DNA of 38,147 nt from a virus (Duplodnaviria; Caudoviricetes), in IMG/VR virus record IMGVR_UViG_3300032225_000852, positions 1-38,147 of that record. One strand, 5' to 3'. Positions within the stretch are counted from its first letter, which is position 1. Each line of letters opens with the position of its first letter. Positions 3,097-22,295 of the stretch are shown here, piece by piece. Position numbers and translations under genes: made by a program. Below the pieces are notes generated by a model. It worked only from the letters and a program-made list of their open reading frames with translations, did no database searches and had not been told where the DNA came from.

Positions 3097-3326
3097 TACT
3101 CTGCAACAATAATTACTGTTGCTGTCTCTCGGTCAATTTGAATTTGGCCATCGGCCACCATGTTCCAATCGTCCGAGCAACACTCTTTGTCACTGCGGCA
3201 TGGAATGGTAAACACAACGTGCTTTGCAAGGTATTCTTTCTTGCCTACAAACACACGCCATGCATGATCGACTGTGCCCCGTCCTTCTTGACCACGGGAC
3301 TTGTTAAAGCGCACACGGATTTTCAT
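3096..3326 (-). CDS. hypothetical protein (76 aa)
   Basis: ATGA-coupled to the oxygenase gene. Confidence 0.7.
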   Translation of the reverse strand: MKIRVRFNKSRGQEGRGTVDHAWRVFVGKKEYLAKHVVFTIPCRSDKECCSDDWNMVADGQIQIDRETATVIIVAE

Positions 3327-3958
3327 AAAATCTCCACAGACTTTTCTTCTTTGGCTTCTTCATTGACGGCCACGCTTAGGTTCATGTGGACGAATCGCAT
3401 AGACTCATTGCCCATGTTTTTAGTGAACGAATGTGGCACCCATGCGTTGATCAAAATCAATGCGCCGGGTTGTGGTGTGAACACAATTTGGTGTGACCCC
3501 AGAGTGATGTTGCTTGCGTCCTTCTCTGGCAGATTGATGATCACTTTGCCGGGCCTTGGATCATGCACAACCAACTTGCAGGCCTTATCGGGTACATCAA
3601 TGAAAAAGAACGCGCTAATCTGGCATCCAGCCCCATGAACGTGGGTCTCCATGGATGACAGGTGGTTGTGCTCTTGCGTCCACATCTCGGTGAAGTACGT
3701 CACCAACTGATCCATGTTGTAGCCCTGCGACGCAAGGATGTTCCATGCTGTCTGCGAAACGTACTGCGAGAAGTCTTGCAACTCTGGCTCATGCGAATAA
3801 CTGCCAGTCATGAGGTTCACGTAGTCAGGATTTTTTTTGCGCTCACGCGAAGCCTCTTCGTATCTCGTAGACACGGTGCGAACCATGTCAATGAATTCAG
3901 GCTTATGCACCACGTACACGGGCGTGGCAAAGTAGTGCATCTCTTCGAGTTGATCCAT
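3323..3958 (-). CDS. putative 2OG-Fe(II) oxygenase (TIGR02466-like)
   Basis: F-x-TP-x-Y start, HVH...distal H (WVPH), DPRP and R-x-x-x-x-N cupin motifs. Confidence 0.8.
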   Translation of the reverse strand: MDQLEEMHYFATPVYVVHKPEFIDMVRTVSTRYEEASRERKKNPDYVNLMTGSYSHEPELQDFSQYVSQTAWNILASQGYNMDQLVTYFTEMWTQEHNHLSSMETHVHGAGCQISAFFFIDVPDKACKLVVHDPRPGKVIINLPEKDASNITLGSHQIVFTPQPGALILINAWVPHSFTKNMGNESMRFVHMNLSVAVNEEAKEEKSVEIL

Positions 3959-5494: not shown

Positions 5495-7020
5495 TTACGT
5501 GCCCCCATTCCTTTTTTGAACGCGATGTTCATTTGTTGAATTTTGTTGTACACGTTTTTGGTGATCTCAACTGCTGGGGCTTTTGAGAATGCCCACTGCG
5601 TCTCTTGCCCGGTGATCTGCTTGAACAGGTGCCATGCACGTGCTGATTGTTTCTCAGGCTGGCTGTGGTGCTTGGCATACGCCACCACTTGATGCCACAG
5701 GTGCTCGGCGTTGTCGGCCAACTTCTTTTTGTTCTTGCCTTCACCAATAAAAATTTCCTTCATATGGCCGGGCAGTGCTTCGCTCACTTGCGACGACACC
5801 TTCTCGTACCCGCAAGCCATGCACCGCTTGCTGAATGGCGTGTAGCCACAGCGTGGGCAACCCTTAGGCTCGTAGTCCTCATCCTTGCGGATCGTCTTGT
5901 CCAACTTGTCGCCAGAGTCGAGCGAATCCAAACCGTTGAAATAGATTTCGTTGAAGTCGTCAAAGAAGCGAATGATGTTGCCACTGAAGTCCAGCAGATG
6001 GCAGTCTTGCTTGCCGGTCTCAGGCGAAGAGCGCAGGCCACGGCCCCACATTTGAATCGCGGTGGACAGTGACTTACGCAAAGGGCGCGCATCGCAAATA
6101 CAACCCACGTCAGGCACGTCAAAACCTTTGGCCAAGGCCTCGACACTGATCAGCACCTTAAGGTGGCTATTAGGCTTTCTGTACTCCTTCAGAAGGTCTT
6201 CGCGCTCCTTCTTGGTGGTGTCAGCAGTGAACACAGCGGCCATGACGCCGGCGTTGATGAATTGCTTGCACAACTCTTCGCAGTGCTTGATGGTGGCACC
6301 AAACACAATCGTTTTGCGATTGTCACCGAAGCGTTGCCAGTCGGCCACCACGTCACCCACGATTTTGAGTTCACGCTCTTCAGCCGCCTTGTCTGTCCAC
6401 TCACCACCAGCGGTCTCAGCACCGGTCATGTCGGGCTTTGAGCACGAGAAGATGCGCATGGGCACCAACACACCGTTCTGCGTCAGGTCGTACATCGTGG
6501 TGGCATTGATCAGGTTTGAGAATATCTTGCCCAGCCCCGCAGTAAATGGCGTGGCCGACAAACCAATTACAGCCGCCTTGATGTTCATCGCAAACTCAGT
6601 CCACGCCTTATAGGTGGTGTGGGCCTCGTCCACAACAAGAACGTCCATCTGTGGCCAGAAGTTGCGTTTGCCAATGGTCTGCACAGAGGCAATCTGCAAG
6701 AGTTCATCAGGCCGGCGACGCCAGTGTTTGGCTTGAATGATGCCGTGATTGAACAGACCGTATCGGTCAGCCACTTCAGAGGTCTGATCAATCAGGGTGG
6801 TGCGGTCGCACAGGAACACTGCGCGCTTGCCTTTTTGCATGGCCTCATTGCAGATGCGCAGACCAAGGTAGGTCTTACCAGCCCCAGTGGGGGCCATGAT
6901 GATCTGGTTTTTGTGGCCATCACGAAACCCTTGGCGAAGGGCATTGTGGGCTGTCAGTTGAAATTGGCGGGGTGTTGGGAATCCATCATCACGCTCACTC
7001 GGCGCTAGGGCTTGGTTCAT
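5491..7020 (-). CDS. superfamily II (DEAH) DNA helicase with C-terminal Zn ribbon
   Basis: APTGAGKT, DEAH, SATP, GFD, QMWGRGLR; CPRC...CMAC. Confidence 0.95.
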   Translation of the reverse strand: MNQALAPSERDDGFPTPRQFQLTAHNALRQGFRDGHKNQIIMAPTGAGKTYLGLRICNEAMQKGKRAVFLCDRTTLIDQTSEVADRYGLFNHGIIQAKHWRRRPDELLQIASVQTIGKRNFWPQMDVLVVDEAHTTYKAWTEFAMNIKAAVIGLSATPFTAGLGKIFSNLINATTMYDLTQNGVLVPMRIFSCSKPDMTGAETAGGEWTDKAAEERELKIVGDVVADWQRFGDNRKTIVFGATIKHCEELCKQFINAGVMAAVFTADTTKKEREDLLKEYRKPNSHLKVLISVEALAKGFDVPDVGCICDARPLRKSLSTAIQMWGRGLRSSPETGKQDCHLLDFSGNIIRFFDDFNEIYFNGLDSLDSGDKLDKTIRKDEDYEPKGCPRCGYTPFSKRCMACGYEKVSSQVSEALPGHMKEIFIGEGKNKKKLADNAEHLWHQVVAYAKHHSQPEKQSARAWHLFKQITGQETQWAFSKAPAVEITKNVYNKIQQMNIAFKKGMGARK

Positions 7021-10784: not shown

Positions 10785-12146
10785 CTATGGAATCGGGTTG
10801 CCCATGAGGTCAACATTCATGAGCATCCGATCCGTGTCTTCTCTCGTCGCGTTCTTTCGACGTTCATTCAATGCTTTCAATCCTTCGTAGCCTTGGTAGG
10901 CCAACTCAGGTGCCTGCAACACAAGGCCAGCGGCTTGAGTAACGCCAAATGGCAACATGCTCAGGGCACCGCCAGCACCGCTTGCAAACTGCGCCGCATT
11001 ACGTGCAGTTGGCATGTGCAGTCCTTTGTTGTGATAGTCGTACTCTTTGAATGCGTCGTACAACTGTGATCCAGCTAAAGCGCCACCTAAAGCACCTACA
11101 CCCACACGAGCAACTGAGGGCAAAGCACCCTTGACTAATTCGCCTGCTTGAACGGCTTGATCTGCCGCACGAGTAAGCACTGTGGGGTTGTGTGTGTACG
11201 CAGACAAGTCAATTGGTGCCTTGCCGGGCGTTGTGGTGAAGATTTGACGTGGTTGACCAGTCTTTGGATCAATCGATGTTGTTTTTGCCACCCGCTCTGC
11301 CGGTGTGCCTTTGATGCTGGCCAAGGCATCTTGCACCTCAGACATAGTGCGAACGGGGGTGCCACCAGCAATCTTTTCTAATTCTTTCAATGGAACGCGA
11401 AGGTCTGGTGCAATCTGACTGTTGAGATACCGTTGAAGGCTTGCACGGCTTTGAGGCTTGTTCATGTACTCAGTATTGCCAGTCGCCTTGTTGTACAGCG
11501 ATTGAATCAAAGGAAGGGCCCTTTTGCCCGTTTCAATGCTTCCCGCTATCTGAGCCCCAGTTGCGGCTCCAATGCCGCCCATGATCACGTTTTCGGGCGA
11601 TCCTGCGGCTGATGATGCGGGTATGGGCTTACCTTTACCCTCATCTTCGCCGGGTTTAGACGAATCGGCTTCTGCCGTCTCTGTTTTTTCTGATTCAGCC
11701 GCTTTTTCGCCAGTGGACACATTGGGCAGAGCACCGCCGTAATAAGTAGAAACCTTGTCCATGTGGTTGATGGTTTCGTCAGGCAAGTCTTCAATCTTTC
11801 CGCTGGTAAAGTATTTGGTATTTGGGCCAGCGTTGTACCCAGACAGAACTTTGTATGGATCATTTCCAATGTGTTTTTTTGACACCAAATCACTAAGAAT
11901 TTCCATACCACAATCTATGTTCTGATCGAGGTCTTTTGGATTTTTGCATTTATAAAAATCAGCAGTATCTTGCGTGATTTGCATCACACCCATTGCACCT
12001 TTTTTTGACTCAGCCTTAGGATTAAATCCACTTTCAGCCATGACCATAGGAAGCACAAAGTCGGGATTCAATCCCTTCTCTTTTGCTTTCTTTGCAACCT
12101 TCTCTGCTACATCAAGTTGCTCATCAGTCAGTTTGGATAAATCCAT
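10785..12146 (-). CDS. virion-associated lytic transglycosylase (SLT domain), putative ejection protein
   Basis: AESGFNP.A.S..GAMGVMQI and YNAG motifs; Gly/Ala-rich hydrophobic C-terminal helices. Confidence 0.85.
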   Translation of the reverse strand: MDLSKLTDEQLDVAEKVAKKAKEKGLNPDFVLPMVMAESGFNPKAESKKGAMGVMQITQDTADFYKCKNPKDLDQNIDCGMEILSDLVSKKHIGNDPYKVLSGYNAGPNTKYFTSGKIEDLPDETINHMDKVSTYYGGALPNVSTGEKAAESEKTETAEADSSKPGEDEGKGKPIPASSAAGSPENVIMGGIGAATGAQIAGSIETGKRALPLIQSLYNKATGNTEYMNKPQSRASLQRYLNSQIAPDLRVPLKELEKIAGGTPVRTMSEVQDALASIKGTPAERVAKTTSIDPKTGQPRQIFTTTPGKAPIDLSAYTHNPTVLTRAADQAVQAGELVKGALPSVARVGVGALGGALAGSQLYDAFKEYDYHNKGLHMPTARNAAQFASGAGGALSMLPFGVTQAAGLVLQAPELAYQGYEGLKALNERRKNATREDTDRMLMNVDLMGNPIP

Positions 12147-12154
12147 GCTTCACC

Positions 12155-13642
12155 TCAAGGGTTTTGTTTTTTTGCGGCTTCTCGTTTGGCTCTCTCGGCT
12201 TTGATGGCATCAAGGGTCAAATTTGAAGTGCTCTGTGCTGGAGCAGGCTTGTTGGACACTTTGCCAGCCGCAGGGTTGTAAACAGCCTCTGAACGAACAT
12301 CTAATGGATTTGATGTTGCAATTTCACGGTACTTCTTTGCCTGCTCTTTGCGCAAGTCAAGATACTCTTCGTTGTCTTCCAAACGGCCGTAGGGAATCTT
12401 TTTCTCTTTGGCAAATTTGTAGCGTTCTTGCGTGGCCTTTTCGGTGTGCGCCATCAAGTCAACTAAGGTCACCAATGCAGACTGGCTGTTGCCAATGTTT
12501 GGCGTCGAAGTCTGTTGCAATTCCATAAACGCATTAGTCGGGTTGAGTGCCGCGCCACGCAGAGCAACTTGGTTCTCAGCCAACATCTTGACTAGCACTT
12601 GGAACTTGTTCTTGGCCTCTTCGGACATGCCAATCTGGCGTGCGTACACATCGATGTCTTTGAGCGTATCGCCCAACTTGCCATCTGCCGCCGCACGTGC
12701 AAACACTTCCATCGGATTGTTGCCGCCAAATTTGTTGAGCAAAGCACCAATCTGTTCTTGGCCGCTGACCTTTTTGCCGTCCGGTGCCACAGAGTCTGGA
12801 AGACCAACACCCAAAGACAAGTCGCGGATTGAGCCCAACAACTTCAATCGATCTGGAGCGGCATCTGCACGTTGACGCATGATTTCCTCGACGCTCATGC
12901 CTTTCTCGCGCTGTTCGCGTGCATAGTTTGCTGAGGCTTCCATCTTGTCGTAACGTGACATTGATGCCCACTGTGTAGGATCGACTTGAGGAGGGCGCGC
13001 CGCATCCACCGCCTTGATAAATTCTGCCTGCTTGGCTTGCGCAGTTTTGGGGTCTGCGTTTGAACTTATCTGGAATTTTGCAAAGTCGTCCAATTGCAAT
13101 AACGGGTCTTTGCCCATTGCCGCAGTTGCCGCTGTAGTGATTTCCAAGCCCTTCTGTGCGCCCTCGTAATAAGCCTTGGCGGCTTGCGCAATAGGCGTGC
13201 TGTCACCCAGTGATGTAATGCGGCTGTAAGTTGTTGCATCCATTGGAGCAACCTTGCCATCTGGCCCAGTATTCTTGGCCAACCAATCTTGATAGATTTT
13301 GTTTTGCTGTTGCTTTTGAGACAACAACATGTTGGCTTGCTCCATCTGCACTTTCATCTGTGCAATAGGCAATTGCTGTTCACGCTGTTGCTCGACGTTT
13401 TCACCCATGGCTTCTGACGCGCTACCAAGGGACGCAAGGAAGCCACCGAGTTGCGGTTTTGCAAACCCAGCGGCCACTTTCCACCAGTTCGGCTCTTCGT
13501 AGCGTTTTTGCAGTGCCTTGACTTGCTCGTCAAGCGTGTCGCGGTATTTTTGAATTGACTCCTCTGGCATTTCGGCAGGGTTGATGTTGCCGAGACCGCC
13601 AGCAAAGCTGTAGTCCTGTGTTTTGCGTGATGGTTCAGCCAT
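12155..13642 (-). CDS. putative DNA ejection / internal virion protein
   Basis: Helical, Ala/Gln-rich; lies between other ejection-like genes. Confidence 0.65.
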   Translation of the reverse strand: MAEPSRKTQDYSFAGGLGNINPAEMPEESIQKYRDTLDEQVKALQKRYEEPNWWKVAAGFAKPQLGGFLASLGSASEAMGENVEQQREQQLPIAQMKVQMEQANMLLSQKQQQNKIYQDWLAKNTGPDGKVAPMDATTYSRITSLGDSTPIAQAAKAYYEGAQKGLEITTAATAAMGKDPLLQLDDFAKFQISSNADPKTAQAKQAEFIKAVDAARPPQVDPTQWASMSRYDKMEASANYAREQREKGMSVEEIMRQRADAAPDRLKLLGSIRDLSLGVGLPDSVAPDGKKVSGQEQIGALLNKFGGNNPMEVFARAAADGKLGDTLKDIDVYARQIGMSEEAKNKFQVLVKMLAENQVALRGAALNPTNAFMELQQTSTPNIGNSQSALVTLVDLMAHTEKATQERYKFAKEKKIPYGRLEDNEEYLDLRKEQAKKYREIATSNPLDVRSEAVYNPAAGKVSNKPAPAQSTSNLTLDAIKAERAKREAAKKQNP

Positions 13643-13645
13643 GGA

Positions 13646-15748
13646 TTAACCTTTCTTGGATGGCAAAGCGCCACGTGAGTAAGTTGATGCGCAACCTTTA
13701 AAACCACGTGCTTTGGACTTGATCAAGCCGCCTTCGGCCGCGCAAGTACAGCAACAGCAACAGTCACAGCATGAACAGCAATCGCACTTACAACCGCCGC
13801 CACCACCACCGCCCTTAAAGATGTCTTTAAGTCCTGATTTGATACCGGGAAAACACTTTATGAGGGCTTTTCCTGCGCTTCCTATAGCGCCCAAACCAGA
13901 CAGTGGAGACATGTCTAAAGTAGTTTTCGTGCCAGTTGGGATGCTGTAGCCTTGAAGCAGGCTTCCAAGCGATTGCAATTTGGTGAGGGGATAGTTTTGC
14001 TTGTTTTGCTCGATGGTCTGTTGTTGGCCACCAAGGGTTGACAGTGCGTTGATACAAGCCAAGTTCATGTTGGCACCAGTTTGTGCCAAGTTGCCTGCGT
14101 TTACGCCTGCTTGATTCAGCAAGTTGCCTTGGTTTGCCGCCGCTTGCGATGCAGTCTGCGCCGCAGTGAGGTTGGCCTGATTCTGTTGTGCTTGAGCATT
14201 GGCCGCAGTCGATCCCAAGTTGGATGCAATGGTGTTTGCACCCTGTTGCAAGGCACCAAGATTTTGGCCTGCATTGATCTGATTTTGCGCCTGCTGGTTG
14301 GTCAAGTTGCCAGCGGTCGATCCCAAGTTGCCCAACAGGTTTGCTTGTTGCTGAGTCAGGGTTCCCTGCACGTTGCCTGCATTGATCAAATTCTGTTGTT
14401 GCTGGCCAGTCAACGAGCCAGCAGTCTGTCCTAATTGGCCAAGCAACGAGGCTTGTTGTTGCCCCAAAGTTCCAGCAGTGTTTGCGGCATTCAGGATGTT
14501 TTGCTGTTGTTGTGAGGTCAATGTTCCTGCGGTTTGACCTGCTTGGGCAAGCAATGATTGTTGCTGTTGGCCAAGCGTGCCTGCGGTGTTGGCCGCATTG
14601 AGGATGTTTTGTTGCTTTTGGTTCGACAAGGTTCCAGAGGTCTGGCCCAACTGGCCAAGCAAAGAAGCCTGTTGTTGAGCCAAAGTTCCTGCGGTGTTGC
14701 CTGCGTTCGCAATCAAAGCGTTTTGCTTGCCAGCGGCGCACAAAGCCTGTCCATAGCCCTGAGACATCATCTGGGCAATCTGGTTGTTCAAGTCTTGCTG
14801 TGCTTGAGCAGTGATTTGGCCTTGCACCTGAGCGCCGCGCTGTGATCCAAACTGGCCAGAGCCAACGGCCGCCGCCGCCGCTTGAGGCGACAGGTTCTGA
14901 CGGATGTTGCGCTGGGCAATATCAGACATTGATTGCACCGCAGTCTTGAGGTACGGGTTCATGTAAGAAGCCGCTAAATCAGCAGGGCTGTTTTCAACGG
15001 CCTTTTGCAAGTAGGGGTCGGCCGCGCTTAAGCCACCGCTTGTAGCGGCTTGTTTGAGGTACGGGTCTGCCGATGCGTTTGCGTTTACGGCCATGCCTTG
15101 GTCAAGGTAAGGGTTCGCTTGGCAGATGCCGCCCTTTGCCGTGGCTCGGGTCAAATAACTGTTTGCCGCATCTGGGGCGCAAATGGCTGTGCCTTTGTCC
15201 AGCAAAGGTTGTGCGTTGTTGATCCCGCCGCTGGTTGCCGCTTTGGACAAATACGGATTGGCCGCAGTGACCGAATTCATGCCAGTTGCTGTGTCGATGT
15301 TTTCTGACGCAACAGCGGCCGCGCAAGTGTTTCCTGCCCGGCCAAGGTAGCCAGTTGCAGAAGACAAGCCAGAGAGGCCAGCGCCCTTGTTTATCAAGCA
15401 TTGACCAGCCTTGTAGCCAGTCGTACACATGGCCGTCTTGGCGTAGGGGCTGAGTGCATCCAGTGGGCTAGAGCCAGTGCCTGCTTTTAGGTAAGGGGCC
15501 GCCGCGCCCGTGATGTCTTGCTTGGCGGCTTGACCTACCAGACCTTGGCCAGTTGTGATGCCTGCCTGTTGGTTGCCAAAATTGGTTGCAACTTTGCAAA
15601 ACGCTTCAGTTTGTAAAGGCTGGGCCCCTGCAAACTGCGCTTGATCAGAGGCTGTTTTTCCTTGACTCGCAAGGTTACTCAGGTAGTCGGTGTAATAACC
15701 CGGCGCTGTCGTTTGTTTGTTTTGCGAGGATTCCAGTAAGTTTGCCAT
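13646..15748 (-). CDS. putative ejection (pilot) protein with Gln/Ala/Gly repeats and poly-Cys tail
   Basis: YMNPY and GQFGSQR motifs; ~18-aa repeats; GGGGGGGCKCDCCSCCDCCCCCTC near the C-terminus. Confidence 0.7.
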   Translation of the reverse strand: MANLLESSQNKQTTAPGYYTDYLSNLASQGKTASDQAQFAGAQPLQTEAFCKVATNFGNQQAGITTGQGLVGQAAKQDITGAAAPYLKAGTGSSPLDALSPYAKTAMCTTGYKAGQCLINKGAGLSGLSSATGYLGRAGNTCAAAVASENIDTATGMNSVTAANPYLSKAATSGGINNAQPLLDKGTAICAPDAANSYLTRATAKGGICQANPYLDQGMAVNANASADPYLKQAATSGGLSAADPYLQKAVENSPADLAASYMNPYLKTAVQSMSDIAQRNIRQNLSPQAAAAAVGSGQFGSQRGAQVQGQITAQAQQDLNNQIAQMMSQGYGQALCAAGKQNALIANAGNTAGTLAQQQASLLGQLGQTSGTLSNQKQQNILNAANTAGTLGQQQQSLLAQAGQTAGTLTSQQQQNILNAANTAGTLGQQQASLLGQLGQTAGSLTGQQQQNLINAGNVQGTLTQQQANLLGNLGSTAGNLTNQQAQNQINAGQNLGALQQGANTIASNLGSTAANAQAQQNQANLTAAQTASQAAANQGNLLNQAGVNAGNLAQTGANMNLACINALSTLGGQQQTIEQNKQNYPLTKLQSLGSLLQGYSIPTGTKTTLDMSPLSGLGAIGSAGKALIKCFPGIKSGLKDIFKGGGGGGGCKCDCCSCCDCCCCCTCAAEGGLIKSKARGFKGCASTYSRGALPSKKG

Positions 15749-15750
15749 TT

Positions 15751-17958
15751 TTAACCTTTCGTCTGCTTGATGTAGTCAAGGGGAGACTTCGCCTTAGGGG
15801 GTATTTTACTTGTGGGTGCTGATCTTTTGTGTGCGCGCAACTTCTCACGCAGACCATCAAGAATTTTTGCACCCGCCTTGTTGTCGCCACCACCAATGGC
15901 CGACACAAAACCTGCTGGGAACACGTATTCGCCGTCTGCAATTTTGGCTGGTACGGGCTGACCTTTTGCAGTTTCTCTGTGAGGTATTTGGTTGCGAAAT
16001 CCATCAAGAACTTCACGGCCAGCCTTGCTAGAACCGTCACCTAAAGCCGCCACCACGTCAGCGTCCATTACATAATCGCCATCATGAAGCATTGCCGGGA
16101 TGTCGTCAGACTGACCCGTGCCACCGCCGCAAGCGTAGTACCCGGTCATGCCCGTCACAAACTCTGGGTTGTGATTGTCAGGCATTGCATCGTGGTACTT
16201 CTTGGGCAAGCCACCAGCGGCCAAGCCACCCATGTTGCCCATGTTGGAGATGCGTTGTGCCAACTGAGTCAATTGCTTGTGCGCAACAGGCTGGCGCTTG
16301 CTTGATGCAGAGTTAACTAAAAAATCAGGGCCGTCTGCAATAAATTTGGGCATGTACTGTGGGTCTTGGTTGTAGCAGTACGAAAGAGAGCAACTTGCCG
16401 CACAGCTTGATGCTTCATTTTTGCCGCCACTTGCGAAACTGCCACCATGAGCAAGGCCGCCTGTGTTTTCACCAAAAGGCATCAAGTTGATTTGAGGCAC
16501 GCCACCATATCGGTTTTGCATCTCTTTGGCCAACTCTGGGTGCATGCTGGCATATATGTCTTGCAATTTAGATTGGTCAGCTTTAGCCTGAGTAGGCTTG
16601 TCAAAAGCAATTTGATTTTTTAACAATGAATCCCGTGTATCAAGCCACGGAATGGCACCACATCCAAGACTACCAAGCGTTCCAGCAGTTTGCACTGACT
16701 TTACTTTTGGAATTTTGACTTTTGGAATTTTGACTTTTGGAATGGTGACTTTTGGAATGGTGACTTTTGTATCTTTGTCACAGCAATCGCAACAGCAATC
16801 TATGCAACACGGATCTTTCTTGCCAGTAACTGTGACTGTTGGAAGTGTTGTAACTGTTGGCGTATTAGTGCAAGTGATGCAACATGCTTCTTTTTTTCCA
16901 GTAACTGTGACTGTTGGAAGTGTTGTAACTGTTGGCGTATTAGTGCAAGTGATGCAACATGCTTCTTTTTTTCCAGTAACCGTGACCGTTGGAAGTGTTG
17001 TAACTGTTGGCGTATTAGTGCAAGTGATGCAACATGCTTCTTTTTTTCCAGTAACCGTGACCGTTGGAAGTGTTGGATTTGTAATTGTTTCGTTTGTGCA
17101 TGTTGGCAGGCCACCAGTCACATTTGTATTTGGTGTGCAAACTAAGTCTGTGCATTTTTCTAATTTGCCTGTGACATTGACCGTATCCAGAGCGCCTGTG
17201 CCTGCTGTAGCACCGGTGTCTGTTGTTGCGGCCGATCCAGTTGGAGTAAGGCTACGTGTCAAGTTATCAACACTACAGGCGTCTTTGTTTGCATTGCCAG
17301 TAACGGTTACTGTGCAATCTTGATTTTTGCCAACTTGAGTGTTGTTGTTTGTGATTGTTGGCAAACCGCCCAACTGCGTAGTTGATGCACAGCCTTTGGC
17401 ACAGTCGTCTGAAGCCGCGCTGGTGCTTACAGGCAAACCAGTATTTGAACTGTTTGAAAGGCACTTATACAACGAGTTGGCACCACTGTTGACCAAGTTG
17501 TTGGCAATTGAGCCAACAGCACCACACAAAGGGTTTTGTCCTTTAAGAACTGATGCCGCCGCGCCTTTGGCACCTGAGGTCAATATGTCGCTTGCGGTGC
17601 AACTCAAATCAAGAGTGTTTGACAGTTCATTACCAATACCAACGCCAATCTCAGCGCCAACCATGTTCAGGCCAGTGTTGAGCAACGCCTTCTCAAGTGA
17701 GGCACCATTAGCCAAGTTGTAGCCAAAGTTAAATGCAGGCACTAATTCAGGGGCAACAATTGCCACGCCGATTTTGGCTATTGTTCCAAGCGGGTCATCC
17801 AGCGCCGCCTGAATTGTTTTTCCCACTGCTTTGACAACAGGTTGAACAACTTCAGTGACAACCGTTTCTACGATTTTTCCAGCGCCCTCAATGACGGCAC
17901 CGACGGCGTCGCCAACTGCTTCAAAAAAACCACCAACTGCGTCTGCTACTGCTCCCAT
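15751..17958 (-). CDS. Cys/Thr-rich putative internal virion/ejection protein
   Basis: MG start with amphipathic helices; tandem repeats; C-terminal GTGQSDDIPAML.DG.YV module. Confidence 0.7.
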   Translation of the reverse strand: MGAVADAVGGFFEAVGDAVGAVIEGAGKIVETVVTEVVQPVVKAVGKTIQAALDDPLGTIAKIGVAIVAPELVPAFNFGYNLANGASLEKALLNTGLNMVGAEIGVGIGNELSNTLDLSCTASDILTSGAKGAAASVLKGQNPLCGAVGSIANNLVNSGANSLYKCLSNSSNTGLPVSTSAASDDCAKGCASTTQLGGLPTITNNNTQVGKNQDCTVTVTGNANKDACSVDNLTRSLTPTGSAATTDTGATAGTGALDTVNVTGKLEKCTDLVCTPNTNVTGGLPTCTNETITNPTLPTVTVTGKKEACCITCTNTPTVTTLPTVTVTGKKEACCITCTNTPTVTTLPTVTVTGKKEACCITCTNTPTVTTLPTVTVTGKKDPCCIDCCCDCCDKDTKVTIPKVTIPKVKIPKVKIPKVKSVQTAGTLGSLGCGAIPWLDTRDSLLKNQIAFDKPTQAKADQSKLQDIYASMHPELAKEMQNRYGGVPQINLMPFGENTGGLAHGGSFASGGKNEASSCAASCSLSYCYNQDPQYMPKFIADGPDFLVNSASSKRQPVAHKQLTQLAQRISNMGNMGGLAAGGLPKKYHDAMPDNHNPEFVTGMTGYYACGGGTGQSDDIPAMLHDGDYVMDADVVAALGDGSSKAGREVLDGFRNQIPHRETAKGQPVPAKIADGEYVFPAGFVSAIGGGDNKAGAKILDGLREKLRAHKRSAPTSKIPPKAKSPLDYIKQTKG
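16700..16768. repeat. 15-bp coding tandem repeat (~4.5 copies; KV[TK]IP)
   Basis: acttttggaat(ttt/ggt)g units. Confidence 0.9.
16823..17075. repeat. 75-bp coding tandem repeat (~3.4 copies; LPTVTVTGKKEACCITCTNTPTVTT)
   Basis: cgtattagtg recurs at 16861, 16936 and 17011. Confidence 0.95.
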
Positions 17959-17959
17959 A

Positions 17960-18394
17960 TTAGGCTCCCAAATTCAAAGCAACACGAGTTTTTTGGCCAT
18001 CCTTGGCTCGAAACACTTGATAACCCATGCCGGGCATCGGAGGGTTCATCGCAATCAGTTTGAACAAACGATCAAGTGATGGGTCGGTATATTCTGTGAC
18101 CAAAATTTTGAGACCGAGTACGCGCTTGGCCCACACGCAAAACAGTTTGCTGTTATCTACAAAGTTGGGGCCTGTGTCGGCATTGAATGCTTTAAAAAAA
18201 CCTTGGCTATTTTTTCCGGTATGCACTTCAAACAAGGTGTTTCCAAACTGTTTGACCTTGGCGGTAGGTTGGCTCAATTCGTCCAAGATGGCAGGCATCA
18301 TCACCTCAGGAGGGTAAGGCTGTTTGGTGCTTTCCAGAAAAATGCCAATAATTTGGCCTGAATCCAGCTTTTGCTTTTTTGAATCTATTAGCAT
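17960..18394 (-). CDS. hypothetical alpha/beta protein, possibly a GNAT-like acyltransferase
   Basis: The ORF is well supported (1-nt gaps to both neighbours); function is inferred only from size and position. Confidence 0.5.
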   Translation of the reverse strand: MLIDSKKQKLDSGQIIGIFLESTKQPYPPEVMMPAILDELSQPTAKVKQFGNTLFEVHTGKNSQGFFKAFNADTGPNFVDNSKLFCVWAKRVLGLKILVTEYTDPSLDRLFKLIAMNPPMPGMGYQVFRAKDGQKTRVALNLGA

Positions 18395-18395
18395 G

Positions 18396-19511
18396 TCATA
18401 ACTCCGTTGTCATTACTGCGGCTGAATAAACGTTACCCATACCAGCCGCCAATGACAAAATGGCCCCTTTCGGAGCCTCAATGTCGTGCGACAAGAACAC
18501 GTCGTCTTCTTGCGTTCTGTTTGGAATGCTCGGCACAAACCCGTTGGTCATATTGTCGATCAACATGCATGTTTCAAGCAAGCCGCTTACACCCATGGTG
18601 TGCCCAATTACTTGCTTGTACGAGGTGGCCACAAAGTCCGAGAAAGTCGATTCAATCGCCGCTCTCTCAGCCCGGTTGTTGGATTTGGTGCCCGTGCCAT
18701 GGGTTTTGATCACCGAAATGCATGCCGGGGTCAATTCAGCCATCTTCAGCGCGCCCTTTGAGGCCTTCACAAAGCCTTCGCCGTCATCAGTCTGGCCGAT
18801 GGCATTGGCGCAATTCTCTGAGGCCGTGTAGGCCCCTAAAAGACGGCCCTTGGGGGTAATTCCACGGCGCTTAACCGTAGCTTCGTCTTCAAACACCGCC
18901 AAGCAGGCCCCCTGACCCACGTGGAACCCGCCGTTTACGCTGTCGAAGGCCGAGGGTAGGACACCCTCTTTTTCGTCCTTCCAAGCCAGCGAGGCCTGTG
19001 CTTCACCAAAAAAGTTGAGGGTCAAGTTGCAAACTTGGTCTTCTACAGCCAACACGATCACCCGGTTAAAACCATAAAAGCGCATCAGGGTTTGTACGTC
19101 CATGAGCACTTTCATGCTTGAGGCGCAGGCCGTGGAGTCAGTCACGATGTGGTCTGCCGCCCCAAAGACCTGAGCGGTACGGCCGGCATAGACCTGAGTC
19201 AGCGTCAGTGGCAGGAACTTGTATTCGTAGGTCAGGCTGTTGGGCTCTTGCTTGACGGCGTTAATGCCAGCGAAGTGGCCATTGCCACCGGCCAGAATGA
19301 ATGCCGTCTTGGCTTCGGTGTCTTCACGCAAGGTCTTGGCCAACTCCTGATCGATCACCTTGTCGGCAACCCGGTGCGGAGGGTAGAACAGGCCAGTCTT
19401 GACCTTTTCATAGGATTCTGGGAACCAGTTCACCACCTGAGGGAAGCGGATGTCTTCCAAGAGTTTGGTGGTGGTGGATGATGCAAGTCGATAGTCGCTG
19501 AGATAAATCAT
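18396..19511 (-). CDS. beta-ketoacyl-ACP synthase-like protein (FabF/FabB family, divergent)
   Basis: Cys-His-His triad in STACASS, KTHGTGT and YKQVIGHT; PSAFD...GF..GQGA. Confidence 0.9.
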   Translation of the reverse strand: MIYLSDYRLASSTTTKLLEDIRFPQVVNWFPESYEKVKTGLFYPPHRVADKVIDQELAKTLREDTEAKTAFILAGGNGHFAGINAVKQEPNSLTYEYKFLPLTLTQVYAGRTAQVFGAADHIVTDSTACASSMKVLMDVQTLMRFYGFNRVIVLAVEDQVCNLTLNFFGEAQASLAWKDEKEGVLPSAFDSVNGGFHVGQGACLAVFEDEATVKRRGITPKGRLLGAYTASENCANAIGQTDDGEGFVKASKGALKMAELTPACISVIKTHGTGTKSNNRAERAAIESTFSDFVATSYKQVIGHTMGVSGLLETCMLIDNMTNGFVPSIPNRTQEDDVFLSHDIEAPKGAILSLAAGMGNVYSAAVMTTEL

Positions 19512-19789
19512 TTGATCATCTCCTTGGCTTCCTCGATTGACACTGGGTCACGTGTCTTGTGGATTTCCAAGAAGTCAAACAACTGCTGAGGCGTCTCAGG
19601 GTGAAAGTCCTTCACCAGATCATCGTGGATGTCGTAGATGATTGAAAAATACATCACGATCATCAGGCCATCGAGTGAGTCAATCTCTGTCTCAATGAAC
19701 GGCGTGTCCATTTCCGTCATTGGAGCAAGTCCAAAATGCGCAGGACGTGCCTCACGCGCCACCATGTTCAGTAAATCTAAAAAGTTCAT
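19508..19789 (-). CDS. acyl carrier protein-like (93 aa)
   Basis: Acidic and small, with the IDSLD phosphopantetheinylation motif; start moved to MNFLD at the ATGA overlap. Confidence 0.8.
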   Translation of the reverse strand: MNFLDLLNMVAREARPAHFGLAPMTEMDTPFIETEIDSLDGLMIVMYFSIIYDIHDDLVKDFHPETPQQLFDFLEIHKTRDPVSIEEAKEMIK

Positions 19790-20022
19790 TGTGCCCCCAC
19801 ATTCAAAATGCCGACAGCTTGCTCGGCCCAGTCTTCCCACCTGTGAAATGTCCTCGAATCTGGAAGCCCTGATTGTTCAAGACCACCAAACGTTGAGAAC
19901 CCATCAACCCATTCCTGCCAATGCTCTTGCGGTACAACAGCAAGTTGCCGGGTAGCGAATAACTCGACCATCAGTTTGCAGTACTGATCCCAAGTCATCC
20001 CGCGAGGGTCATAGGCAGTCAT
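19786..20022 (-). CDS. hypothetical Trp-rich protein (78 aa)
   Basis: Overlaps both the nozzle stop and the ACP start; DPR..W / W..W pattern. Confidence 0.75.
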   Translation of the reverse strand: MTAYDPRGMTWDQYCKLMVELFATRQLAVVPQEHWQEWVDGFSTFGGLEQSGLPDSRTFHRWEDWAEQAVGILNVGAQ

Positions 20023-22295
20023 TATGGATTACCTGTGCCACGTACATCGCCAGTGTCTATGCTCAATAGCACCCGGCCCATGAAATAGTCTCCATTTTGG
20101 GTGTTGCTCTTGAAACGCATGCGCATCTCACGATATTGCTCACGCATATCAATCTTCAGCGTGTCTGATGCAAACGTGTAAGGTGACGATTCCTGCGTAG
20201 TGTCTTCGGCGTAGCCCTTGCCCAGCACAATGACTTGCATGTCACCGTTCTGCACAAAGTCAGGTTCAATGCGCTCACAACGTGTCCAAACGTTGTCACC
20301 GGGCTGTTCTACAGAACCCACAAGGCCCATGCGTGAGCCAATGATGTTGGTCTCAAAGAACGAGTCAATTGCGTTCACCTGATTGGTGTACACCTCGTTT
20401 GTTCCGGTCTCGTGTTGCCACAGCGTGTACTTGCCGGCCGTGTTCTGAACGTTTCCTGCCCAAATGGGGCGACGGAACACTTCGGTAAATACACCAGCAG
20501 ATCGGCGAGCGCCCAAGGCTTGGCCAGCGTCGTACCAAACTTTCTCGCGCACGTTGTAGATGATGGCGTCATTGCACTCTTCTGAGTCACCAGAAGGGAA
20601 GAACCACCAGATTTCACCCCAACGAGGCACCTTGCTCACCCAGACCTTTTGGCGCTGGACGTAGTTTAGGTTGTCAAAAAAGAAATTGTTGTTCTGTTTG
20701 TTTTCAACCTCTTGCACAACACCGTTGTACATGAGAAAACGATCAGTGCCTACCCAATAGAAAATGCCGTCGTACTCAATCACGCACTGGCTTGAAAGGA
20801 TCGAAGACTGCTGTGTGATCAGGTCATAGCGCCAGTATAGGGTCTGGTTGCCGACGGTGGTAGGTGCATAGGTGACCCGCACCACAGAATCTAAAGTCCA
20901 GAACAGGCCAGCAGGTGACGTTGTACCGCCCCGAACTGGCAGGCCCTTGACCACCTTGGTGGAAGAGATGTTGTTGCGGTTGGAATCGGCCGATGTCCAG
21001 TTGTTGAAGTCACCAGCCGCGCAGTTCTCGATCAATCCGTTGTTGCCGTAGGCGAACAAGTACGGGAACAACATCACAATGCCGCCAGACACAGAAATGT
21101 TGTTGTCAAAAGTCAGAGTCGAGTAAGCGCCAAACGTAAGCCCGGTTGTTGTGCCTGCCGTGGTGGTGATTGCCGCGCCGCCAGATGTAGCAGACAAAGT
21201 GAATGTGCTTGTTGTGTTGGTGGTGATGACGTAATAAGTTCCAGCGGCGATACCCGTGGCGGTTCCAGTCAATGTGCCTGTCACAACAACTGTTTGGCCA
21301 ACTGCAATGTTGGTTGTTGCCGTGCAAGAAAATTGACCAGCAGTTCCAGTAACCGCAACGCCAGCCAGCAAAGCACTTGGTGTTGATGCTGATGCATTTG
21401 CGCTCAATATGGCAGTCCACACTCCAGAAACTTCTTGTGCGCTAACCACCGTGGTGCCTGAGGGGATGCCAGTGCCCGTAACAGACACACCAGCACCAAT
21501 CCCCACGTTGGTGTTTGGAAAAGTTATTGTGGACGATCCTGAGGTCGTTTTTGCTGTGTCCGTAAACACACCAACAGGACTCAATGTTGTTCCGGTAAAC
21601 GGGCCATACATAGGGCGCGTATTCACCGAAGATGAGATGTTGGCCAAGTTCTGTCCGGGGTGAGCAATCAGGTTGTTCTGGCCATTACCGTAGGCGTCAT
21701 AACCGATGTCGAACTGCCATAGCGTATTGGGGTTTGGGGCATAAGTTGTCAGGTTGTCAATATACCCAACAAAGCCTGATCCGGTGCCGCCAATGCTTGC
21801 CGCAGAGATTGTGACTACCGCATTGTGAACATAATTCACACCGCCACTGGTTACCACCACGCTAAACACTAAGTTGCTGGACACCGTCACAGTGACTACG
21901 CATCCAGTTCCAACGGCTGTAGTAATAGAAACACCAGTGTATGTACCGTTGGTGTATCCAGAACCTTGATTGGTAATGCCAATTGTTGATACAGAGCCGA
22001 CTGGCTCTATGGGTGTTGGGCCAAAACCAACGCCGTTGTCGTTGTCAGTCGTCCATTGCTCGATGCCGTTGTTGTATCCAGAGATCACGTAATTGAGCCC
22101 ATTCTCTGCGCTCATGATCATACCGCGACTTATCCCTGTGGCGTTGAGAAACGCTCCGTTGTATCCAGCAATTTTCCGAGGGCGTCCGTATTGGAAGCGA
22201 ACCCACTTCCCATCCACATAACTCACCGACGCAAAGACTGTCCCGTCCCGCTGTATGCCGGGGCCTACTTGAAGGGTGACAACTTTTGCGGTCAT
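20022..22295 (-). CDS. tail nozzle / head-stabilisation protein (P22 gp10 / tubular B-like) with inserted beta modules
   Basis: Size and position; GIQRDGT..WVRF N-terminus; FYW.G...F..YNG and EIWWFFP propeller-like motifs. Confidence 0.7.
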   Translation of the reverse strand: MTAKVVTLQVGPGIQRDGTVFASVSYVDGKWVRFQYGRPRKIAGYNGAFLNATGISRGMIMSAENGLNYVISGYNNGIEQWTTDNDNGVGFGPTPIEPVGSVSTIGITNQGSGYTNGTYTGVSITTAVGTGCVVTVTVSSNLVFSVVVTSGGVNYVHNAVVTISAASIGGTGSGFVGYIDNLTTYAPNPNTLWQFDIGYDAYGNGQNNLIAHPGQNLANISSSVNTRPMYGPFTGTTLSPVGVFTDTAKTTSGSSTITFPNTNVGIGAGVSVTGTGIPSGTTVVSAQEVSGVWTAILSANASASTPSALLAGVAVTGTAGQFSCTATTNIAVGQTVVVTGTLTGTATGIAAGTYYVITTNTTSTFTLSATSGGAAITTTAGTTTGLTFGAYSTLTFDNNISVSGGIVMLFPYLFAYGNNGLIENCAAGDFNNWTSADSNRNNISSTKVVKGLPVRGGTTSPAGLFWTLDSVVRVTYAPTTVGNQTLYWRYDLITQQSSILSSQCVIEYDGIFYWVGTDRFLMYNGVVQEVENKQNNNFFFDNLNYVQRQKVWVSKVPRWGEIWWFFPSGDSEECNDAIIYNVREKVWYDAGQALGARRSAGVFTEVFRRPIWAGNVQNTAGKYTLWQHETGTNEVYTNQVNAIDSFFETNIIGSRMGLVGSVEQPGDNVWTRCERIEPDFVQNGDMQVIVLGKGYAEDTTQESSPYTFASDTLKIDMREQYREMRMRFKSNTQNGDYFMGRVLLSIDTGDVRGTGNP

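Follow-up and report, generated by a model that had tools for sequence, protein, structure and literature searches.

A conserved ACP–ketosynthase–GNAT cassette before the ejection-protein genes of podovirus-like phages: a candidate protein-acylation system

The window analyzed here is the whole 38,147-nt stretch of IMG/VR record IMGVR_UViG_3300032225_000852, a 69%-complete record of a tailed virus (Duplodnaviria; Caudoviricetes). Its podovirus-like structural operon, located on the minus strand, contains genes for an acyl carrier protein (ACP), a ketosynthase (KS), and a 144-aa protein of the GNAT fold, followed by putative ejection proteins. This cassette is real and conserved, and it is not an ordinary metabolic gene pair, in agreement with an earlier note on this DNA that denied it the role of a metabolic accessory set. 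Its members have recognizable folds and intact catalytic residues, are under purifying selection, are linked, and co-vary. The function proposed below has about an even chance of being correct: a private acyl-ACP would feed the GNAT-fold protein, which would in turn acylate EJ1, the first ejection protein, at its N-terminal amine, all catalytic steps being inferred. The cassette and its candidate substrate are arranged as follows.

19508-19789, minus strand: ACP, 93 aa from ATG, with D37-S38-L39-D40 and the Ser38 codon at 19678-19676
18396-19511, minus strand: KS of the FabF/FabB fold, 371 aa, with Cys129 (19127-19125), His271 (18701-18699), Lys299, and His304
17960-18394, minus strand: GNAT-fold protein, 144 aa, at the position of podoviral internal virion protein A (IVP-A; T7 gp13, P22 gp14), candidate acyltransferase
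15751-17958, minus strand: EJ1, first putative ejection protein, 735 aa, candidate substrate

The window ACP alone has no Pfam match. According to family-level searches, PP-binding is matched by 5 of 33 members (E up to 0.1), and the family profile recovers ACPs of the Protein Data Bank (PDB) with a best E of 4e-4. Positions D37, S38, and D40 are invariant in all 33 sequences and the serine of the DSL motif begins helix II, which confirms the ACP with a DSL serine originally read from the letters. Within 14 residues after the DSxD motif, 96 of 105 ACP sequences have 1–2 acidic residues, compared with 3–4 in two housekeeping ACPs, and such an acid-poor helix II suggests a private carrier. The ratio of nonsynonymous to synonymous substitution rates (dN/dS) for 8 close pairs ranges from 0.006 to 0.23, indicating purifying selection. 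The start was taken at ATG; the 110-aa GTG frame reported by the open reading frame (ORF) tool runs into the preceding 78-aa ORF.

The KS model has a mean predicted local distance difference test (pLDDT) value of 89.7 and a Foldseek template modeling score (TM) of ∼0.8 to FabF, with 16–21% identity in the structural alignments. All 28 aligned sequences share Cys129, His271, Lys299, and His304; thus, the Cys-His-His triad is indeed intact, as previously claimed, and the protein has the KAS I/II-type thiolase fold with both the triad and the conserved Lys. The claim that it differs from an ordinary host fab gene is supported as well. Against TIGR03150, the FabF equivalog, it scores 111 bits, far below the cut-off of 493.75; its C-terminal loop reads AAGMGN where FabF has SFGFGG, and its gate residue is Met instead of the Phe of FabF; and its context is a phage operon or an HlyC locus, not a fab operon. 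Among the matches listed, the highest identity to an annotated cellular KS is 29%. As for annotated phage and plasmid records, the uncultured phage genome MW202545 has 74% identity, and none of the others listed exceeds 29%. In 2 samples of 401 genomes each, no KS relative was matched at E 1e-36 beyond one already known. Recent capture of a host fabF is ruled out by the score, the low identity, and these empty samples. The dN/dS values of 0.03–0.09 (8 close pairs) again correspond to purifying selection. Decarboxylative condensation is the activity that would be predicted for this KS.

The model of the 144-aa protein has pLDDT 95.5, and its top structural match has Z 11.3, root-mean-square deviation 2.9, and 123 aligned residues. 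The best matches (Z 11.3–10.7, 118–126 aligned residues) include the N-terminal acetylases RimI and Ard1; all 50 matches listed are GNAT-fold acyl- or acetyltransferases by title, and the Foldseek E is 4e-5. Sequence searches of Pfam, PHROGs, NCBIfam, and PDB returned nothing for this protein, and 0 of 42 family members match PF11090 or PF11039. The earlier note had suggested a putative acyltransferase, with reference to HlyC-type, GNAT-like enzymes. The GNAT fold stands, whereas HlyC membership is not supported: 0 of 42 members match PF02794 at E up to 1, and the family profile gives no score against 3 HlyC-like proteins. The fold lists hold no HlyC entry, and a likeness to HlyC may still exist. 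The nearest named Atlas cluster is DUF2824 (0.93, 156 of 256 features shared), and the weaker viral matches include DUF2824 and "internal virion protein A," with a fold-level TM of 0.5–0.56. In all operons read, the gene is directly upstream of EJ1, which is the IVP-A position. Invariant residues are S5, L10, E39, G51, N52, T53, N71, and D73. In GNAT proteins the CoA pyrophosphate-binding loop is Q/R-x-x-G-x-G/A. The consensus after strand 4 is here NADTAxNFVENS, without this motif, which would fit either an ACP-using or a non-enzymatic GNAT. Close pairs have dN/dS of 0.02–0.16, i.e., purifying selection.

Relatives were collected by scans each reporting the best 80 loci, which is not a random sample. 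A KS relative is encoded by at least 542 viral stretches and a GNAT relative by 475. Collapsing 239 loci at 95% identity results in 111 KS clusters, of which 92 adjoin the GNAT gene, 16 follow a helicase in the replication region, 2 belong to bacterial assemblies, and 1 is truncated. Wherever there is enough sequence to tell (234 loci), an ACP lies directly upstream of the KS. The 80 metagenome loci comprise 64 GNAT-side, 10 helicase-side, and 6 other cases, and 185,579 genomes representing prokaryote species yielded 4 loci (2 phage-type operons and 2 isolated ACP-KS pairs flanked by bacterial genes); bacterial assemblies with relatives carry proteobacterial labels. Among sequencing runs, none of RNA was listed as a carrier. 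With regard to the synteny raised in the earlier note, the cassette is not randomly placed; ACP-KS is also found outside the structural operon in the replication-region and lone bacterial cases. KS and GNAT tree distances correlate at 0.50, compared with 0.27 and 0.24 for either with the nozzle gene, a difference that linkage alone could yield.

To obtain relatives regardless of the cassette, a scan was anchored on the nozzle of GB2A, a cultured Caulobacter phage whose operon is the same except that ACP, KS, and GNAT are missing. The resulting nozzle tree of 134 representatives includes 98 with ACP-KS in the operon, 3 independent GNAT-only lineages, 1 with a relocated pair, and 32 with none. 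In these 98, GNAT is present wherever the contig reaches it; 2 representatives, in which a long small-gene insert had pushed GNAT past the distance limit, were relabeled by hand. A structural operon with ACP-KS and without GNAT is never observed on this tree, while GNAT without ACP-KS has arisen 3 times independently.

EJ1 has a conserved N-terminal motif with an acidic amphipathic helix, a hydrophobic stretch, a variable Cys-rich linker, and a conserved C-terminal domain, and its N-terminus changes with the cassette. The start M-[G/S/A]-[A/G/V/S]-[V/I/L/A] is present in 88 of 91 cassette-bearing versus 2 of 32 cassette-less representatives, and GB2A also lacks it. With the cassette, residues 2–21 have a median charge of −4 and are positively charged in 4 of 91 proteins. 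Without it, the matching helix, which follows a TGxxE[FY] motif, is positive in 16 of the 19 proteins (out of 32) where it can be placed, so that the comparison leaves out the remaining 13. Residue 2 is Gly in 44, Ser in 41, Ala in 5, Pro in 1, and Lys in 1 (n = 92), and EJ1 of the closest relative (98% KS identity) begins with Met-Ser. The N-terminal Gly specificity suggested earlier therefore does not hold for the family, and Gly-specific, NMT-like N-myristoylation is ruled out as its function. In cassette-less relatives (L195, L208, L212, L214, L218-L269) an N-terminal extension of EJ1 ends with TGxxE[FY] before a cationic amphipathic helix; cleavage at this motif may release the helix. A RimL-like GNAT of a different type lies upstream in some of the 32 cassette-less relatives, and others with a similar EJ1 have none.

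Losses of ACP-KS provide natural experiments. No KS was found elsewhere in 10 near-complete genomes without the operon pair, including L232 and L235 (94–100% complete). In these two, the GNAT branch has a length of 1.04 versus 0.09–0.20 in sisters, i.e., ∼5 times longer or more, whereas the nozzle branch is not longer; the GNAT scores 76–83 bits versus 156–169 in sister lineages, and EJ1 begins with MGWVKF or MGLFSW. A scan for relatives of this divergent GNAT returned that GNAT alone. In L116 and L117 the ACP and most of the KS are deleted, with a decayed 34-codon KS remnant left at 1688-1789 and 5886-5987, respectively. EJ1 of the third lineage, L098, starts with Met-Cys. As for relocation, both contigs with a relocated pair that reach the tail genes (G007 and G807) retain GNAT and the same type of EJ1. 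G007 joins the same sister phages whether KS, GNAT, or nozzle is compared, so ACP-KS moved within the lineage and was kept. GNAT was not found in 11 of 13 replication-context contigs, which are fragments of 8–47% completeness and hence uninformative. Two replication-context loci have a FabZ-like dehydratase (PF07977) right after the KS (L282 8127-8558, E 6e-30; L283 4168-4632, E 2e-29), and these additions favor real chain building. In every replication-context locus read (e.g., L177 5098-5409), the KS is followed by a conserved ORF of 100 aa that has no Pfam match and whose C-terminus may be helix-turn-helix-like.

A second setting of the family is bacterial. The KS profile search reports ∼30 full-length clusters at ∼210–620 bits, compared with ∼100 bits for FabF. 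Nine of these distant clusters were used in a metagenome scan, which gave the 3 loci below; for most of the others no context was on hand.

L339/L340, 154-7616: Gly-rich-repeat protein of 1,600–1,700 aa (no Pfam match), HlyC (E 3e-6), ACP, KS, HlyC (E 4e-19)
L358, 13-4810: protein with an RTX nonapeptide match, HlyC-like protein (E 9e-4, below cut-off), ACP, KS, end of contig
L341, 539-2332: HlyC-like protein (E 2e-3, below cut-off), ACP, KS

These loci contain the nearest bacterial relatives of the phage ACP-KS pair, and RTX-like proteins adjoin 2 of the 3. Their KSs are 43–49% identical to the window KS and branch next to the phage clade (joint-clade support 1.0, midpoint root), and their ACPs match the phage ACP profile with E of 2e-27 and 1e-14. 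Given HlyC on the bacterial side and GNAT on the phage side, the ACP-KS family therefore stands beside a protein-acyltransferase-type gene in 2 unrelated settings. No description of a bacterial locus of this kind (a large RTX-like protein, one or two HlyC-family genes, and a dedicated ACP-KS pair) was found in the literature searched. The 2 lone pairs (L156 441-1843, L157 7720-9128) are of the phage type, nested inside the phage KS tree, and lie among bacterial genes; no GNAT was found in either genome, both of which are incomplete. The GC content at third codon positions of the L157 pair, 0.8, matches that of the flanking genes, which suggests long residence.

The proposed pathway would begin with a host phosphopantetheinyl transferase (PPTase) loading phosphopantetheine onto Ser38 of the ACP; a PPTase (PF01648) was not found in any of 5 related genomes that are 90–100% complete. 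Nor were reductase, dehydratase, malonyl transferase, or PPTase families matched among the 31 larger window ORFs, with small ORFs only partly scanned, and within this coverage the previous statement that the genes do not form a complete fatty acid or polyketide pathway is upheld. The KS would then extend a host-derived acyl chain or shuttle it onto the phage ACP, borrowing the host malonyl transferase and reductase, as NodE and NodF do. After removal of the initiator Met, and while the head is being assembled, the GNAT-fold protein would acylate the free Gly, Ser, or Ala amine of EJ1. Upon ejection, this acyl chain would assist the acidic amphipathic helix of EJ1 in engaging the membrane, a task that the cationic helix may perform in many cassette-less relatives. 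The chain would give EJ1 a lipid anchor, made by the phage, with which to engage the host envelope.

Several observations weigh against this pathway. According to the available text of PMC4819975, podoviruses without ACP or KS normally have an acetyltransferase-like gene here, and so adjacency alone means little. Most of the synteny reflects shared ancestry, since each list of loci gives the best 80 among related phages, and independent events are few (3 losses, 1 or 2 relocations, and few complete absences). The GNAT fold match cannot separate the use of acetyl-CoA from that of acyl-ACP. A small second residue is common in any protein; EJ2, the second putative ejection protein, begins with Met-Ala in 40 of 51 cases. 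Two of the 3 losses show little or no GNAT acceleration (0.13 vs. 0.05–0.06 for L117, 0.47 vs. 0.35–0.52 for L098) and keep the acidic EJ1 start, so ACP-KS is dispensable. Finally, the lone pairs of L156 and L157 suggest a use independent of EJ1.

Some of these points would also suit an auxiliary lipid module. The ACP-KS pair would then alter host fatty acids, phospholipid, or lipid A during infection, its site in the late operon would be historical, and the GNAT would be an ordinary IVP-A acetylase or an assembly chaperone; this reading is judged unlikely. Consistent with it are the 16 replication-region clusters, the 2 FabZ-like additions, the 2 bacterial assemblies with the pair alone, and the 3 lineages that retain GNAT without the pair. 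Moreover, viral fabF, possibly of this family, is listed as a lipid auxiliary metabolic gene (AMG), and mentioned only as such, in the available parts of lake virome papers. A captured housekeeping copy, however, would not be expected to have the low KS identity and acid-poor ACP helix II reported above, no operon has ACP-KS without GNAT, and the bacterial sister loci are protein-acylation loci.

Alternatively, the same acyl supply may serve another acceptor, i.e., an internal Lys (as in HlyC and CdiC) or a Cys (as in IacP-SipB) of EJ1, EJ2, or another virion protein; this has a rather low probability. It is consistent with the bacterial sister loci, which carry lysyl acyltransferases of the HlyC family (a family described in the available text of PMC8510554), with the Lys-rich C-terminus of EJ1 across the family, and with the 12 of 87 lineages that gained 5–75 Cys in EJ1, as well as with the Met-Cys start of L098. 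On the other hand, 74 of 87 EJ1 proteins (51,076 residues) have no Cys at all, and cassette-less phages retain the C-terminal domain as well, the N-terminus being the part that changes with the cassette. Cys as a general acceptor (IacP-SipB-type S-acylation), which the earlier note had allowed for, is ruled out by these Cys-free proteins and the lack of any conserved Cys; its suggestion of the 700-aa EJ2 as a further substrate is not supported either.

The Cys-rich, Met-Gly appearance of the 735-aa EJ1 is true of the window, but neither property is a family feature. Cys accounts for 31 of 735 residues in EJ1 and 22 of 700 in EJ2 of the window, and the 12 EJ1 proteins with abundant Cys belong to the window's subclade. 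This subclade (window 13646-17958, L002, L005, L008, L009, L012, L015, L019, L031, L096, L101, and L179) reaches 11% Cys with metallothionein-like CCxCC runs. In EJ2, Cys mostly occurs at sites that are Asp, Gln, or Asn in others, according to pair counts that are non-independent. The enrichment is real, confined to EJ1 and EJ2, and later than the cassette. An altered genetic code is ruled out by the normal Cys numbers of nozzle, KS, adaptor, and the third ejection protein (EJ3) in the same genomes. One may guess that the added Cys serve disulfide cross-linking in the periplasm or bind metals. The variable linker of EJ1 (window 16650-17150) contains tandem repeats, with CCITCTNTPTVTTLPTVTVTGKKEA present 3 times along with PKVKI runs, and related repeats occur in L009.

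Least probable is that an acyl-ACP or a small acylated molecule is itself the product, either a structural or regulatory cofactor of head assembly or a small N-acylated compound produced by the GNAT, and that no protein is lastingly modified: the fold matches do include small-molecule acyltransferases (SpeG, NcdE, TofI, and SbzI with its carrier protein), and IVP-A is, according to the available text of PMC4819975, needed for morphogenesis and not kept in the virion, but the conserved free EJ1 N-terminus that tracks GNAT type would be left unexplained, and no substrate-making genes are nearby.

In comparison with known systems, acylation of the EJ1 amine would resemble NodF-NodE-NodA in logic, HlyC/CdiC in chemistry, and IacP-SipB in purpose, with the phage cassette belonging to none of them. 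The rhizobial system likewise has a private ACP (NodF), a KS (NodE), and an N-acyltransferase that rely on host fatty-acid enzymes; its acceptor, however, is a chitin oligosaccharide, and the likeness is one of superfamily level and logic. Without nodE the product is still acylated and the special chains are lost, as stated in the available text of PMC5080398 (where a sentence has the roles of NodF and NodE swapped), which resembles the persistence of GNAT-only phage lineages. HlyC and CdiC (PF02794) also perform acyl-ACP-dependent protein acylation that promotes membrane engagement (PMC8510554, in the part available). In contrast, the known systems use the housekeeping ACP and modify an internal Lys, and the phage GNAT is no HlyC member by sequence. 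Salmonella IacP-SipB shares a dedicated ACP in an injection-machine locus, and non-essential acylation of the pore-forming translocon protein SipB aids membrane insertion there, which provides a precedent; according to the accessible text of PMC5279801 the acceptor is one conserved Cys and neither KS nor HlyC is described, whereas the phages have KS and GNAT and no conserved EJ1 Cys. FabF/FabB with AcpP have the same KS fold and triad, and differ from the window proteins in the GMGN loop, the Met gate, the bit score (111 vs. 494), and the acidic helix II patch that the window ACP lacks.

Regarding podoviral IVP-A (T7 gp13, P22 gp14/DUF2824, PF11039), the shared feature is a small GNAT-fold gene between tail tubular protein B and the first ejection gene (available parts of PMC4819975 and PMC6775973). 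For T7, P22, epsilon15, and others, Hardies et al. (PMC4819975, as far as available) report that this site is occupied by a gene of an acetyltransferase family, in line with the earlier note's remark that such genes often precede internal virion genes in podoviruses; its product is reported as required for morphogenesis yet not retained in the virion. Unlike these, the phages studied here have a private ACP and KS preceding or co-occurring with the gene, which the same parts of the two papers do not describe for any IVP-A, nor do they name an IVP-A substrate, and the window protein has no Pfam match. The word "acyl" is absent from the main text of review PMC8954989 in the version available, and no description of a phage ACP-KS-GNAT system was found in the literature searched, whose coverage ended short of most subscription papers and of supplements, where AMG tables may list these genes.

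The structural operon of the window runs from the adaptor (PF24175) through a tail protein, the nozzle-like protein, a 78-aa ORF, ACP, KS, and the 144-aa ORF to 4 large proteins. Besides the cassette and EJ1, the following genes form its context.

20022-22295, minus strand: nozzle / tail tubular protein B-like gene (phrog_3287, E 6e-29)
19786-20022, minus strand: conserved small protein of 78 aa after the nozzle, also in cassette-less relatives
13646-15748, minus strand: EJ2, 700 aa, Gln/Ala-rich, Cys-enriched in the window's subclade only
10785-13642, minus strand: third (495 aa) and fourth (453 aa, SLT transglycosylase domain, PF01464, E 4e-18) putative ejection proteins, with a match to phrog_342 internal virion protein

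All genes lie in the order and with the tight junctions that had been claimed. Starting from the nozzle, the junctions are a 1-nt overlap (TAATG), ATGA, ATGA, a 1-nt gap, and a 1-nt gap, followed by a 2-nt gap according to coordinates; over the whole structural operon they are overlaps or gaps of 1–3 nt. The 78-aa ORF, previously placed in the cassette, is outside it, because cassette-less relatives still have the gene. The ejection role of the 4 large proteins is predicted from their position, the SLT and internal-virion matches, and weak PHROG matches. The nozzle of a relative is 49% identical to the "phage stabilization protein" of MW202545, and at ∼1,700 aa the nozzle-family proteins of L020 and L021 exceed the usual length more than twofold. 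In the early region, window 3323-3958 encodes a 2-oxoglutarate and Fe(II)-dependent oxygenase (PF13759), which might conceivably hydroxylate an acyl chain or a protein.

In the broadest interpretation, which has somewhat less than an even chance of being correct, tailed phages would attach lipid to their DNA-ejection machinery, using an acyl chain that they encode themselves and that is orthogonal to the host. ACP-KS would then be an undescribed protein-acylation family common to hundreds of freshwater podoviruses and to RTX/HlyC loci of bacteria. The IVP-A proteins (T7 gp13, P22 gp14), which have long lacked an explanation, would be N-terminal acyltransferases for the first ejected, pore-forming protein. 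If so, this would be a phage-encoded lipidation pathway for a virion protein, of which no description was found in the literature searched, and the entry of an acidic, lipid-free virion protein into the outer membrane would have an explanation. The function of IVP-A in T7 and P22 would become directly testable, and a class of freshwater viral "fabF" genes would have to be re-read as morphogenesis genes rather than metabolic helpers. The ACP-KS family may, in that case, tailor acyl chains for protein acylation in bacteria as well.

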